A stretch of DNA of 63,966 bases, counting the filler. It is 7 parts of 7 records of this genome, joined end to end, with 100 filler letters (N's around TTAATTAATTAA, not from the genome) between each part and the next. Parts side by side here need not be neighbours in the genome. Positions count along the whole stretch, not along the records: positions 57,951 to 63,966 come from SRR20825010_6884; 6 more parts are not named here. The stretch is one strand, 5' to 3'. This document shows, one piece after another, positions 57,951-63,966 of the stretch. The notes under the pieces were generated by a model that was not told the DNA's origin, did no database searches, and saw nothing but the letters and a program-made list of their open reading frames with translations. Both the position numbers and the translations under genes were made by a program. Position 1 is the first letter of the stretch. Each line of letters begins with the position of its first letter.

Positions 57951-58364
57951 AGTATTTCCTGAAGTATTTACAGAAATAAATCCTCCAGCTTGTTGAATTC
58001 TATCAAAAGAGCTTCTATCTACTACCAAATCCTTTATCACAGGAAATGCTTTAGCGCGGAAAGGTTCAATAACAATAGTATCGCCATCGCTAAACATACG
58101 CATATGCAACTGGCAGGTAGTAACCAAACGGTCTGGACCATGAGGCTCACCATTAATTTGTAGCGAGCAACTTCCGCAAATACCTTCACGGCAATCATGA
58201 TCAAAAACCACAGGTTCTTCACCTTTATTAATCAAATCTTCGTTGAGAACGTCTAGCATTTCTAAAAAAGACATATCCCCTTCTACTCCGTCAATAGGAT
58301 ATGTTTTTAGTTCTCCCTTTGTAGCTGCGTTTTTTTGACGCCAAATTTTTAAAGTAAGTTTCAT
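57951..58364 (-). CDS. sdhB: Succinate dehydrogenase/fumarate reductase Fe-S subunit (3' truncated)
   Basis: 2Fe-2S motif [10 protein letters not shown]...TTCQL. Confidence 0.95.
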
Positions 58365-58420
58365 AATTTCATATATATGTAACTCATTGCTGAGATTGAA
58401 TATTTATTCTTTTAAAAAAA

Positions 58421-58444
58421 TAAGTTATTAGGTTATTATGTTAT
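58421..58444. repeat. Three 8-nt repeats directly 3' of the four-helix-bundle gene
   Basis: TAAGTTAT TAGGTTAT TATGTTAT, abutting the stop codon at 58445-58447. Confidence 0.85.
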
Positions 58445-58819
58445 TTAGCCTTTACGGTTTTGAAGGTATTTTATGTACCCATTCAAAATCAATAAAGTTT
58501 TATCATGAACAATTCTAAGCTCATTTAATGTTTCTTCTGAAATATAACCTTCATCCAATGCTATTATTCCATGATCCAATGTTTCATTCAAGGAACCTCT
58601 TCCCATTCTACAAAACTGAATGTTCTCTTGAAAGTGAAATCGACCAAAACCTTCGGCTATATTATTCCCTACTGATCTTGAAGAACGCATTATTTGTGAC
58701 GTTAATCCAAACTTTTCAGAAGAGGGAAATTTTGAAACCATTTCATCTTTCACAAAATTTCGAAGAACACGGGCTGCCTTCCAACATTCCAATTCTTCAA
58801 AAGATTGAAAACTTCCCAT
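58445..58819 (-). CDS. Four helix bundle protein (23S rRNA IVP / TIGR02436-like)
   Basis: Family signature FEELECWK, FPSSEKFGLTSQIMRSSRSVGNNIAEGFGR, RGSLNET and LNGYIKYL. Confidence 0.93.
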   Translation of the reverse strand: MGSFQSFEELECWKAARVLRNFVKDEMVSKFPSSEKFGLTSQIMRSSRSVGNNIAEGFGRFHFQENIQFCRMGRGSLNETLDHGIIALDEGYISEETLNELRIVHDKTLLILNGYIKYLQNRKG

Positions 58820-58824
58820 AATAA

Positions 58825-58856
58825 ATAACTCAATAACTTAGTAACACAGTAACTTA
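58825..58856. repeat. Four 8-nt repeats 5' of the four-helix-bundle gene, inverted relative to 58421-58444
   Basis: ATAACTCA ATAACTTA GTAACACA GTAACTTA. ATAACTTA is the exact reverse complement of TAAGTTAT. Confidence 0.85.
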
Positions 58857-60857
58857 TTTATAACTTCTCGATTTAACTTCTATATTTTCGTATTCCAATG
58901 CTTCTTTATGTAGCACCTCATTTCCTGGATCTCCAGTGTATTCCCATGCGGCAACATACATAAAGTTTTCGTCATCACGAAGGGCTTCCCCTTCTTCAGT
59001 TTGGTATTCTTCACGGAAGTGACCTCCACAAGATTCGTTTCTATGAAGCGCATCTTTTGCAAATAATTCACCCAACTCTAAGAAATCTGCTACACGTGTT
59101 GCTTTTTCAAGCTCTGCATTCATTTCGTCCATGCCGCCTGGAATTTTTACATCTTTCCAGAATTCTTCACGAAGCGCTCTAATTTCTGTCATTGCAGATT
59201 TTAAGTCTTCCGCATTACGTGCCATTCCACATTTATCCCACATAATGTGGCCTAATTTTTTATGGAAATAATCTACAGAATGCGTACCATTATTATTTAC
59301 CAACTTCCCTAAAAGTTCACGAACTTTATTTTCAGCTTCATCAAATTCTTTACTGTCGGTAGGTATTTTTCCTGTTTTAATATCTTTTGAAAGGTAATCA
59401 CCAATTGTATATGGTAAAACAAAGTAACCATCTGCCAAACCTTGCATCAATGCCGAAGCTCCCAAACGGTTAGCACCGTGATCGCTAAAATTAGCTTCAC
59501 CAGTTACATAACATCCTGGAATTGTAGACTGCAAGTTGTAATCTACCCAAATACCACCCATGGTGTAATGCACCGCAGGGTAAATCATCATTGGGCTTTC
59601 GTATGGATTTTCATCTACGATCTTTTCGTACATCTGGAATAGGTTTCCGTATTTATTTTCGATAACCTGCTTTCCTAATTTTGTTATTTCTTCTGTACTC
59701 GGGTTGTGGTTTCCGTGAATTGCAGCTTGTTCTTTTCCGTAACGTTCAATTGCAGAAGCAAAATCAAGGAAAACAGCTTGTCCCGTTTTATTTACACCAT
59801 AACCTGCATCACATCTTTCTTTTGCTGCACGCGAAGCAACATCACGCGGCACCAAGTTTCCAAAAGATGGATATCTTCTTTCTAAGTAGTAGTCTCTTTC
59901 GTCTGCTGAAAGGTCGTTTGGTTTTTTACTACCGTTTCTAATGGCTTCAACGTCTTTTTTATGCTTAGGCACCCAAATTCTACCATCATTTCGAAGTGAT
60001 TCAGACATCAAAGTCAATTTACTTTGGTGATCTCCAGAAACAGGAATACAAGTTGGGTGAATTTGTGTGTAGCAAGGATTCGCGAAATACGCGCCTCTTT
60101 TATGAATTTTCCAAGAAGCAGTTACGTTACTTCCCATGGCGTTGGTTGAAAGGAAAAATACATTTCCGTAACCTCCAGAAGCAATAACCACAGCATGTGC
60201 GGAATGTCTTTCAATTTTTCCTGAAACTAAATCGCGGGCTATAATTCCTCTTGCTTTACCATCAACAATTACCAAATCGAGCATTTCGTGACGGTTATAC
60301 GGGGTAATTTTTCCACGGTTAATCTGACGGTTCATTGCAGAATACGCACCAAGAAGTAGTTGCTGACCCGTTTGTCCTTTCGCATAAAAGGTACGTGAAA
60401 CTAAAACCCCTCCAAAAGAACGGTTGTCTAGCATTCCCCCATATTCACGTGCAAAAGGAACACCTTGTGCAACGCATTGGTCAATAATATTTGCTGAAAC
60501 CTCAGCAAGACGGTATACGTTTCCTTCGCGAGAACGGTAATCGCCACCTTTTACGGTATCGTAAAATAGTCTATAGTTTGAATCGCCATCGCCTTGATAA
60601 TTTTTCGCGGCATTAATACCTCCTTGCGCGGCAATAGAGTGCGCGCGGCGTGGAGAATCTTGATAGCAAAATGTTTTTACGTTATAGCCTAATTCTGCAA
60701 GTGTTGCTGCGGCACTTCCACCAGCAAGACCTGTTCCTACTACAATTACGTCTATACTACGCTTGTTGGCAGGGTTAACTAGATTAATATCATTTTTATG
60801 ATTTGTCCACTTCTCGGCTAAGGGTCCTTTTGGAATTTTGGAATCTAATTTCGACAT
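58854..60857 (-). CDS. sdhA: Succinate dehydrogenase/fumarate reductase flavoprotein
   Basis: Motifs [16 protein letters not shown] (covalent FAD His), HYTMGG, HGANRLG and [10 protein letters not shown]. Confidence 0.96.
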
Positions 60858-60868
60858 CGCTTTTTCTT

Positions 60869-61531
60869 TTAGTGGATTTGATTAAAGTGAAGGTAAAGGG
60901 CAATGAAAATAAACCCTAACGGAATAAATACTGCGTAAAACTGTGTAAACCCTCTAAGTCCTTTTGAATATTTATTGTTCCAGCCCATACTTTGGAAAGA
61001 CGATGAAAAGCCGTGCCAAAGGTGAAGCATTAACAAAACGAACGACAAACAATAAAGACCCGTACGCACTGGGCTTTCAAATTTATGAACCAACTCTGGG
61101 TAATAACGTGTTGCGTCCATCGGGTTGCTTTCAATGTATTTATGAACTATTTCTGGAAACCAAAAATCGTAAAAATGAAGCCCTAAAAACGCCAAAATTA
61201 CCAAGCCACTAATAATCATATTTCGTGAAGCCCACGTTGAGTTTTTATGCCCTTTGAAGGATTTATACTTTATCTGTCTTGCATTATTGTTTCTAATTTC
61301 AAGAACAATCCCCATTACAAAGTGAAAAATCACTCCTATAATTAATACGGGTTGTAATATGCTCTGCACCAAAAAATTGTGCCCCATAAAATGCGACAAG
61401 CTATTAAAGGTATCCGGATCAATGACCGAAGTGAAGTTAATTACAAAGTGTTGTGCTAAAAAGAAGACAAGGAACAAGCCGGAAAGTGCCATTGCTACTT
61501 TTCGTGCAATTGTTGAAGTTAGTATTGCCAT
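60869..61531 (-). CDS. sdhC: Succinate dehydrogenase cytochrome b subunit
   Basis: Motif RKVAMALSG; five TM segments with His ligands (AQH, FHF, LHF, HLWHG). Likely start MAILTST. Confidence 0.92.
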
Positions 61532-61558
61532 TTTGGTTATAGTTCTAGAATAGTTACA

Positions 61559-61590
61559 CAAAAATACACCTCTATCAGGTTGTTGCCAAA
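61559..61590 (-). promoter_or_regulatory. Bacteroidota promoter of sdhCAB
   Basis: Minus strand TTTG-N20-TATTTTTG. Confidence 0.65.
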
Positions 61591-61640
61591 CATTCTTTTG
61601 TTTTTGAAAACTATTTAGAATTAGTTTAAATACATCCTCC

Positions 61641-63965
61641 TTATTTAAGCTCTAATTTTGTAGCTGCTTCTTTACCATTAACCAATACTGTTAGCGTGTA
61701 TTTCCCCTTTGGAAGATAGTATGCGCCATTTTCAGCTTTAGTAACTTTCGTCTCCGTTTTATCAAATAGTTTACTTGACTTTTCTGAAACAGAAAGGTTA
61801 TAAGTAACTGTATTAAAACCTTTTGAAGCAGCTACCTTAAGCTGATGCACTTCTTTTTCAGCTTCGTTTTTTATCCTAATTAATGCTTCTCCAGCTTTAG
61901 GAGTGTAAAATTGTAAAGTTGTTTTAGACTCATACACATCTCTCCAGGTACTAAATTTACTTCCCCAACGCGGTGAAAAATGTATCGGCTCTAGTTCTGA
62001 AACCAATACTTCATTCATAGTGTTTTTTGCTATTTTTTGAAGCAACGAAATATCTGCACGGTAAAGTGAGCGCCCATGGGTTCCTAAAATTAAGTGTTTT
62101 GCATCTGGCTGTATCACTAAATCGTGTACCGCCACATTTGGTAATTCATTAGAAAAAACTTCCCAACTTTCGCCACGGTTAAAGGAAACATACGCACCAT
62201 TATCAGTTCCTAAATACAATAGGTCTTCATTAACAGGGTCTTCTTTTATAACATTTACGGGAGAAGTTGGTAAATTGCTGCTAATGTCTTTCCATGTAGC
62301 GCCATAAGTATCGCTTACATATACATACGGTTTAAAATCGTCCCAACGGTAACCGTTTAAGGTAACATAAACTGTTTCTTTTTTATGGGAAGAAGCAATC
62401 ACGCGGCTTACCCAAAGGTCTTTCGGAAACGATTCTGAAATAACCGTCCAAGAACCGCCACCGTTTTTTGAAATATGCACCAAACCATCATCGCTACCCG
62501 TATAAAGCAATCCAAACTGAAAAGGAGATTCGCTAATACTTGTTAACGTGCCATAGGCTACATTGCCAGGTTTTCCACCCTTGGTTAAATCATCCGAAAT
62601 AGCTGCCCAATCATCCCCTTGATTCATGCTTCGCATCAATTTATTTCCTCCTAAGTATAGAATGTCTTGATTGTGTTCACTTAAAAGTATGGGCGTTTGC
62701 CAGTTAAAACGATACGGACTTTCACCCAACTCATGTTTTGGTTGAATATAAACAGGGGCGCCTCCATTTCTATTCAACCTAAAGTAATTCCCAAATTGAT
62801 AGCCTGTATAAACAATTTTGCTGTTTCTACTGTCTATCTGTACGTGCATACCATCACCTCCAAAAAGAAATTCGTACGGATACTTTCCGTTTTGACGCCA
62901 TCCTGGATTTTCTTCATAGGTATGTGGGCCAACCCAAACTCCGTTGTCCTGCAACCCGCCATACACACTGTAATTTTTTTCAAGATCTACGTTTACAGCA
63001 TAAAACTGACCCACGGCTGGCGCGTTATTTTTAATCCACGTTTCACCATCATCATAACTTATGTTTACCCCGCCATCATTTCCGTTAATTAAATGACCAG
63101 GCTTTTTTGGGTTTATCCAAAGTGCATGGTGGTCTACGTGTAGATTATCGGCATCTATGCTTTTAAAAGTTTTTCCACCGTCTGCAGATTTTAAAATTGG
63201 TACGCCATACACATAGATTTTGTTAGAATCGTTAGGATCTACGTGAATTTTTCCGAAGTAATATCCATACGAATAATACAAATCATCCAAATACCCTTCA
63301 TGTGTTTTCTGCCACGTTTTTCCGCCATTGGTGCTTTTATAAACTTCTGCGCCAATAACAGGGGTGTCAAACAATTGGCTGTTTGCATTTTCTAGATATT
63401 TTGCCAAATCTTCAGGTTTTACAGTACCTACCCGAATCATTTGTTTTATGTTTTCAGCACGGTATTTTTCCTGAAAACCATTCATTTTTAAAAATTGATT
63501 TAGCTTTTTATCCTCTAAATCTAGAAAATCTGCCACCGCCATTGTTTTAAAATCGTCTTTGGTAAGGATATCTGTTTCTTCCTTTTTCGGTTCTTCTTTT
63601 CGGTGAAATTGGTTGTCTACAATCAAATACACCGTGTTATCATCCACAACGGCGGTACCCATGCGCCCCATGCCTTTTCCTATAGGCAACCCACTGTTTT
63701 CAGTAGAAACTTTTGTCCAACTACTTCCTGCATCGGTGCTTTTATAGATGCCACTACCTTCGCCACTCCCTTCAAAATGCCATGCTTTACGGTCTTTGTC
63801 CCACGCAGCTGCGTAGAGTGTATTAAAATTGTTGGGGTTGCTAGAAATTTCAATAATACCCGTTTCATTATTTATAAAAAGTGTTTTATTCCACGTTTTT
63901 CCGCCATCAATGGTTTTAAAAACCCCGCGTTCTTCATTATCAGAATACAAATGCCCCACGGCACC
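61641..63965 (-). CDS. VPS10/BNR (Asp-box) beta-propeller protein, 5' truncated
   Basis: Many SxDxGxTW Asp-boxes; motifs HVDHHALW, GNDGG, GGLQDNG, RFNWQTP and THGRS. Confidence 0.88.
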   Translation of the reverse strand, partial: GAVGHLYSDNEERGVFKTIDGGKTWNKTLFINNETGIIEISSNPNNFNTLYAAAWDKDRKAWHFEGSGEGSGIYKSTDAGSSWTKVSTENSGLPIGKGMGRMGTAVVDDNTVYLIVDNQFHRKEEPKKEETDILTKDDFKTMAVADFLDLEDKKLNQFLKMNGFQEKYRAENIKQMIRVGTVKPEDLAKYLENANSQLFDTPVIGAEVYKSTNGGKTWQKTHEGYLDDLYYSYGYYFGKIHVDPNDSNKIYVYGVPILKSADGGKTFKSIDADNLHVDHHALWINPKKPGHLINGNDGGVNISYDDGETWIKNNAPAVGQFYAVNVDLEKNYSVYGGLQDNGVWVGPHTYEENPGWRQNGKYPYEFLFGGDGMHVQIDSRNSKIVYTGYQFGNYFRLNRNGGAPVYIQPKHELGESPYRFNWQTPILLSEHNQDILYLGGNKLMRSMNQGDDWAAISDDLTKGGKPGNVAYGTLTSISESPFQFGLLYTGSDDGLVHISKNGGGSWTVISESFPKDLWVSRVIASSHKKETVYVTLNGYRWDDFKPYVYVSDTYGATWKDISSNLPTSPVNVIKEDPVNEDLLYLGTDNGAYVSFNRGESWEVFSNELPNVAVHDLVIQPDAKHLILGTHGRSLYRADISLLQKIAKNTMNEVLVSELEPIHFSPRWGSKFSTWRDVYESKTTLQFYTPKAGEALIRIKNEAEKEVHQLKVAASKGFNTVTYNLSVSEKSSKLFDKTETKVTKAENGAYYLPKGKYTLTVLVNGKEAATKLELK

Positions 63966-63966
63966 C

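Follow-up and report, generated by a model that had tools for sequence, protein, structure and literature searches.

Between the succinate dehydrogenase genes sdhA and sdhB of a probably Aequorivita-like bacterium lies the gene of a four-helix-bundle protein, bracketed by complementary arrays of short tandem repeats (arms). Comparison with relatives indicates that this is a real and mobile cassette, which resembles the intervening sequences (IVSs) of 23S rRNA and is located in an mRNA operon. The gene is passed on together with its arms, and lineages with their own repeat unit replace one another and the empty allele. The bases of sdhA and sdhB that adjoin the cassette follow its type over a short distance, and gene loss can leave an arm-only hairpin. 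The explanation to which we give slightly better than even chances is that of a promoterless, hitch-hiking, IVS-like cassette at junctions of polycistronic mRNAs, spread by recombination through its flanks and with arms that pair in the mRNA.

The contig and its sdh operon

The window (63,966 nt) joins seven unrelated contigs of 36–62% G+C with N spacers between them, so that everything left of 57951 comes from organisms other than that of the contig with the finding (57951–63966, 38% G+C). The latter appears to be Aequorivita-like: its sdhB is at most 98% identical to Aequorivita genomes, and the closest relatives of the 124-aa four-helix protein, among the best 80 of 295 relatives, are found in Aequorivita records (85% identity). 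On the minus strand, the gene order is sdhC (cytochrome b558 subunit, first operon gene, 60869–61561), sdhA (succinate dehydrogenase/fumarate reductase flavoprotein, 58854–60857), the 124-aa ORF, and the 5′ part of sdhB (iron–sulfur subunit, 57951–58364), where the contig stops at an N gap. The neighbours of the cassette are sdhCAB and the gene for a BNR/Vps10-domain protein. Neither the contig nor any of five related junction loci matched an Rfam model. Four sequencing runs compared with 57951–60900 yielded no informative joint; their one 706-nt 'skip' was discarded, as it came from a divergent organism whose record is nearly collinear.

The arms are arranged as the earlier note had described them. 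Reading along the minus strand, the 5′ arm (58820–58856) consists of four octamer units with the core GTTAY, TAAGTTAC (58856–58849), TGTGTTAC (58848–58841), TAAGTTAT (58840–58833) and TGAGTTAT (58832–58825), followed by TTATT up to the start codon (ATG at 58819); the sdhA stop codon TAA (58856–58854) forms the first three bases of unit 1. The gene itself (58445–58819, minus strand) is intact, and its stop codon (58447–58445) is directly followed by the 3′ arm (58421–58444, minus strand), comprising the three octamers ATAACATA, ATAACCTA and ATAACTTA with the core ATAAC, complementary to the 5′ arm. Between the arms, GTTATTTA and TAAATAAC pair perfectly over 8 bp. A stem enclosing the ORF is present in both the MFE and the centroid fold, as proposed, yet with 21–25 imperfect pairs rather than about 27 (21 in the MFE and centroid folds, 23–25 in duplex folds, the latter at −14.1 to −16.3 kcal/mol). 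According to the duplex fold, a unit-like core within the final sdhA codons (AAGTTAT, 58860–58866, minus strand) could lengthen it into sdhA. Taken alone, this stem is not significant: the two 60-nt flanks are equalled in pairing by 377 of 2000 dinucleotide shuffles, and the whole-region fold has a z of −1.4, with 12 of 100 shuffles equally good. Its 3′ end lies 53 nt short of the sdhB start.

A lone further unit that had been proposed near sdhB, TGAGTTAC (58386–58379), is not part of the cassette, being one strand (3′) of a small hairpin, CTCA-GCAA-TGAG (58379–58394, minus strand), that lies outside it and also occurs in junctions without the gene. This hairpin has a GCAA tetraloop, precedes the sdhB start by about 15 nt and shows a compensatory U-A/C-G exchange between Aequorivita junctions. 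Since it is kept in three Aequorivita junctions without the four-helix gene (L154–L156), it predates the cassette or is independent of it.

Arms across loci and genomes

As the stem of the contig falls within the range of shuffled sequences, its significance comes from homologs. Our search of species genomes found 295 relatives, of which the best 80 were retained; sdhA and sdhB are both found within 3 kb of 57 of these best 80, and 20 lie elsewhere, the remainder being two with one sdh gene at a contig end and one on a 319-bp contig. Arm pairing was assessed in 79 loci with flanks, including that of the 124-aa gene (L039 and L054, with no flank, were dropped). The flanks of these homologs do carry inverted arrays of 7–8 nt, for which the earlier note had proposed to test the family: 31/79 loci beat all 100 shuffles, and in 44/79 the pairing is matched by at most 5 of 100. 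For comparisons of repeat period and arm strand, 14 near-duplicate loci were removed (79 to 65). In 39 of the 65, both arms allow a period of 7 or 8 to be assigned, and the two agree in 36 of these 39 (p = 1e-7). The 5′ flank has more G than C in 73/79 loci and the 3′ flank more C than G in 61/79, and within the units variable positions are often unpaired and the cores conserved.

Each of five genomes examined carries 4–12 family matches, with units that differ between sites. Of 41 non-sdh loci, 40 are preceded by a long same-strand ORF whose end is no more than 200 nt away, and 40 are followed by one that begins at most 180 nt downstream; this count is restricted to same-strand ORFs, and some of its shortest gaps are frames reading through an arm. 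These neighbours resemble what we take to be nrdB–nrdA, trpC–trpF, nuoF–nuoG, sufC–sufD and fatty-acid genes. At the loci examined, the cassettes lie in sense orientation within their operons. Beyond chromosomes, family matches were found in only 24 plasmid records, and none was found in the phage collection. Of two cyanobacterial plasmid homologs examined, the one from Calothrix has inverted heptamer arms and the one from Pseudanabaena has no arms. At L081, L083 and L092, A/C-rich arrays are also present upstream, suggestive of nested or tandem cassettes.

Similar arms surround genes of an unrelated nuclease-fold family, GxxExxY (PF13366, PD-(D/E)XK), so this packaging is not specific to the four-helix protein. 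Among 11 GxxExxY genes from five genomes, the flanks of 6 beat all 60 shuffles, those of 3 are matched by 4–5 of 60, and 2 have no arms. By eye, their units are 9–10 nt long and form inverted arrays (L287–L295), with repeated arm pairs at L287.

The four-helix protein

The 124-aa protein belongs to PF05635/TIGR02436, scoring 96.9 bits (cut-off 33.8) and 88.3 bits (cut-off 24), respectively. This family was first described some 30 years ago within rRNA intervening sequences, and structures have been solved, although we know of no function for it. The predicted model has four helices (pLDDT 95.6) and confirms a fold link to three structures: Xcc0516 (2GSC, TM 0.88), BT_0352 (2RLD) and Avd (4DWL, TM 0.75), the last sharing the fold at a sequence identity of just 4%. 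The 2GSC structure has five chains, and Avd is described, in the portion of that report used here, as a pentameric, positively charged barrel contacting an RNA element (bioRxiv 10.1101/2023.10.23.563531). From these matches we infer that the 124-aa protein may likewise form a pentameric, nucleic-acid-binding ring. Avd is an accessory protein of diversity-generating retroelements, unlike which the four-helix gene has no adjacent reverse transcriptase or template/variable repeats: none was found in the 6 kb of the contig or in the junctions examined. The cassette also contains no nuclease, transposase or splicing domain, and a PADLOC search with the protein was negative. Purifying selection acts on the protein, with dN/dS values of 0.07, 0.10, 0.13 and 0.12 within the junction types 1–4 introduced below (40 of 58 pairs kept, those with dS <0.02 or >3 being dropped).

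Polymorphism of the sdhA–sdhB junction

Of 57 Aequorivita genomes in which sdhB was matched, 56 were surveyed for the junction. It holds a four-helix gene in 27 of the 56 and not in 29, and the empty sites anticipated among relatives do exist, in 14 genomes with junctions of 3–5 nt. The remaining junctions hold arm remnants only (2 genomes), an 89-nt insert (6), about 155 nt (3), about 35 nt (3), or a gene pair with an ATPase (1). Filled junctions fall into four types: type 1, with the octamer of the contig (11 genomes), types 2 (7) and 3 (4), both heptamers with the type-1 core, and type 4 (5), which has a different heptamer and a protein identity of 37–43%. The reading frame is broken in 6 of the 27, some of which may be assembly errors. 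In a quick protein tree of few columns, from which the 6 broken frames, L095 and duplicates were left out (and in which L021 is labelled 'other' though upstream of sdhB), types 1–4 form separate clades, with type 4 outside the clade of the other three.

Among 64 further genomes from across the family, 8 have the gene, with further unit types, and 32 have a junction of at most 20 nt. Seven (L231, L234, L239, L240, L244, L262 and L279) have, by eye, both arms without a gene. These arm-only hairpins, built from other units, begin at the sdhA stop codon and take up the junction almost as far as the sdhB start codon; three beat all 100 shuffles, three are matched by 2–3, and one by 9. A junction that is empty, filled by any of four lineages, or occupied by arms without the gene bears out the proposal that gene and arms are self-contained. 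The proposed insertion without a transposase also agrees with what was found, as no filled junction contains a transposase gene. Filled and empty alleles compared by eye show no target-site duplication. The idea that the unit inserts at stop codons, on the other hand, proved largely trivial, because empty junctions measure only 1–20 nt; the spread at this site resembles allele replacement via the flanking genes more than new insertion. AGT-TAT codons at the sdhA end were considered as a target mark but found no support, as they also occur at short gene-less junctions of the family.

Other occupants of the junction were also encountered. A conserved, gene-less insert of 89–91 nt (L120, L126, L129, L150, L151 and L152) may adopt alternative hairpins and in most cases opens with a copy of the first sdhB bases; the copy in L120 has no Rfam match, and the insert is possibly a regulatory RNA or a relic of another insert. 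G046 (L200:1886–3545) carries an AAA ATPase and a 144-aa partner resembling PADLOC PDC-M29A/B, in a record whose sdhA is interrupted by a frameshift that may be an assembly error; this pair has no arms. Two family genomes (L258 and L264) have a gene for an unrelated, hydrophobic protein of 118–119 aa directly upstream of sdhB.

Such a permissive junction could also house a host-beneficial accessory gene, e.g. a translational regulator or a defence gene, whose arms serve as an autoregulatory operator and whose alleles owe their shuffling to ordinary recombination and not to selfish drive. The strong purifying selection on the protein is consistent with this, as are the PDC-M29-like ATPase pair and the other genes at the same junction, together with the proposal, in the sections of PMC4679880 drawn on here, that A-rich repeats before start codons are translational control sites. 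Yet the ATPase pair lacks arms, the four-helix protein has no PADLOC match, genomes carry up to 12 divergent family members with units that all differ, and the gene is missing from the sdh junction of 29/56 congeners and apparently broken in 6/27 carriers. We consider this explanation rather unlikely.

A history that is not vertical

In an rpoB tree of 50 genomes (6 of the 56, without usable rpoB, were left out, and bootstrap support is not fully settled), well-supported sisters differ at the junction: G023 is empty and G011 has type 4 at 99% rpoB identity, and G002 has type 1 and G007 type 2 at 98%. In AU tests, types 1, 2 and 4 are each incompatible with a single host clade (p < 1e-4 each), although patchy loss of an old polymorphism could by itself also break monophyly. 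Junction states retain some vertical signal, with 12 changes versus 16.9 in shuffles.

The sequences beside the junction are stronger evidence against vertical history than the clade tests. In pairs of the same state, after regression on rpoB identity, excess identity is highest over the final 30 nt of sdhA (0.084) and the initial 60 nt of sdhB (0.04), the genome pairs compared not being independent. When neighbours are chosen by the 60 nt on each side, 12.7 of 23 filled genomes share their cassette type with the nearest one; the figure falls to 4 with middle flanks, 4 with distal flanks and 5 with rpoB. The clearest tract is that of G011, in which 18 consecutive informative sites, from −37 (sdhA) to +42 (sdhB), match type-4 G015, a more distant relative, and not the empty sister G023, with bounds at −61 and +100. 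Among six such triplets, the tract of G010 is almost identical and that of G040 patchier, and the remaining three (G007, G025 and G037) give short or mixed signals. The direction of replacement could be either, as an empty allele may equally have replaced a filled one, and the bases nearest the junction could have converged through stem pairing.

A single ancient insertion, inherited vertically with many losses and flanked by functionless, AT-rich slippage products, would account for the phylogenetic signal in the junction state and for a contig stem that does not exceed shuffles. It is at odds with four protein clades at one site (type 4 being 37–43% identical and outside the clade of the other three), with units and period that switch together on both arms, and with the flank tracts. 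We regard it as very improbable indeed, and largely refuted. Three patterns that the earlier note had named as speaking against a mobile cassette, namely uniform presence, vertical phylogeny and chance-level arms in homologs, were not found, given the polymorphic junction, the AU tests and the arm pairing of the family.

Arms acting in RNA or in DNA

Under the favoured explanation, an IVS-like cassette hitch-hiking in polycistronic mRNA, spread between relatives would proceed by host homologous recombination or gene conversion via the conserved gene ends, and new junctions would be reached by rare jumps. In the transcript, the arms would pair, placing the cargo in the loop and bringing the upstream stop near the downstream start region. 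Arm pairing may thereby make the insert tolerable, and cleavage by RNase III is possible, as in rRNA. In what is the weakest step, the ring-shaped protein of the Xcc0516/Avd fold would recognise its own arms, favouring expression or spread of the cassette.

Several results bear on the RNA side of this scheme. In all 35 filled junctions, the predicted stem starts within about 15 nt of the sdhA stop, and in 21 of the 35 it ends at most 7 nt from the sdhB start. There is no strand asymmetry of G-U versus A-C (the sense duplex is stronger in 39/65 loci, p = 0.21), and thus no sign of selection at the RNA level. At octamer loci, an arm favours its own partner weakly (−1.6 kcal/mol, p = 0.04, n = 22), and the median rank of the own partner is 27 of 79. 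Since initiation in Bacteroidetes operates without Shine–Dalgarno sequences and is tuned by structure and upstream adenines, according to the part of PMC6847099 consulted, translation of sdhB could be gated when the A-rich 3′ arm is paired.

Alternatively, the cassette may be a non-autonomous element at the DNA level, its arms being terminal inverted protein-binding arrays moved by a trans-acting enzyme, either a transposase or a nuclease of the kind represented by the GxxExxY PD-(D/E)XK proteins, with RNA pairing as a by-product. Endonuclease homing involves co-conversion of short flanks, which the short, insert-centred tracts described above resemble, even though ordinary recombination could give the same pattern. 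The missing G-U strand bias, the often unpaired variable positions around conserved unit cores, and the GxxExxY genes with inverted 9–10-nt arrays in the same genomes point the same way. The sense orientation of the cassettes in operons argues against it, as do filled junctions with no transposase and, by eye, no target duplication, the lack of a phage match, the mere 24 plasmid records, and an rRNA relative that is processed as RNA (PMC4990558, in the part cited here). On balance, movement at the DNA level seems unlikely to us.

For the hitch-hiking, RNA-paired cassette that we prefer, the points against are a contig stem within the range of shuffles, the 53-nt gap to sdhB, the absence of G-U bias, the weak preference for the own partner, the residual vertical signal, an unrelated family packaged likewise, triplets of which 3/6 are short or mixed, and an S23p protein that has gone undetected in vivo in Coxiella.

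Relation to known elements

Homing introns and inteins, and MITE/REP elements, have filled and empty alleles at a conserved site and gene-less inverted-repeat derivatives. The cassette shares these features. Short flanks inherited with the insert, also typical of such elements, are clear in G011 and G010 and short or mixed in the other triplets, and ordinary recombination could produce them as well. It differs from them in having no endonuclease, splicing domain or transposase, and in lying between genes and not within one. As for insertion sequences and MITEs, the filled junctions consist of the ORF and its arms only, with no transposase in cis and no target duplication seen by eye.

The closest parallel is the 23S IVS. 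In Coxiella burnetii, RNase III cuts the IVS in helix 45, which carries an S23p ORF and whose terminal stem of 28 bp contains tandem heptamers; the S23p protein was undetected in vivo, and horizontal transfer of the Leptospira IVS between species is cited in the same source (PMC4990558, in the sections available). Based on these sections, the similarities comprise the same protein family in the loop, terminal inverted arms of tandem repeats, sense orientation in the host transcript, sporadic distribution and horizontal transfer. An inverted-repeat stem around an S23p-type ORF is found here too, weak in this copy and significant in 31/79 loci. Unlike the 23S IVS, the sdh cassette resides in a polycistronic mRNA, with many junctions used and many copies per genome, with rival lineages at one site and with an ORF under purifying selection. 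Because it is located between sdhA and sdhB and not in rRNA, it is not a member of the 23S IVSs. In the literature covered, to which subscription journals mostly do not belong, arm-bracketed four-helix genes are described only in 23S rRNA and none in mRNA operons.

A second parallel is offered by the TAACTGA intergenic heptamers of Beggiatoaceae, cyanobacteria and Bacteroidetes, which are A/C-rich and precede start codons in operons, and for which a mobile repeat-binding protein has been proposed, with S1, Csp and Csr named as candidate binders (PMC4679880, in the portion cited). Their sequence resembles the 3′ arms of the family, and they too are tandem heptamers just upstream of start codons. 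In that portion of PMC4679880 they are treated as direct repeats and not linked to a four-helix gene, and its main text contains neither 'intervening' nor 'S23'.

New here are the four rival lineages at one junction and the junction-centred flank tracts, along with the negative result on RNA-strand bias and the weak stem of this copy. A wider scheme, which we find quite doubtful, would make these cassettes transposase-free elements parasitising operon junctions. In this scheme, an Avd-like ring would bind its own 7–8-nt arms and drive directional conversion of short tracts, and the arms would fold the cargo away from the mRNA until a ribosome finishing the upstream gene opens the stem, thereby freeing the downstream start. 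The GxxExxY cassettes with 9–10-nt arms would then represent a sister class, and the heptamers of Bacteroidota and cyanobacteria would stem from arm hairpins without a gene.

We know of no explanation for these heptamer arrays, and the sdhA–sdhB junction links the PF05635 family to them. At this one site, near-identical sister species carry empty, filled, rival and arm-only alleles, and four natural pairs of protein and repeat are available for comparisons of specificity. If the protein does read its own arms, the family would constitute a naturally diversified repeat-binding scaffold and an example of spread without a transposase.
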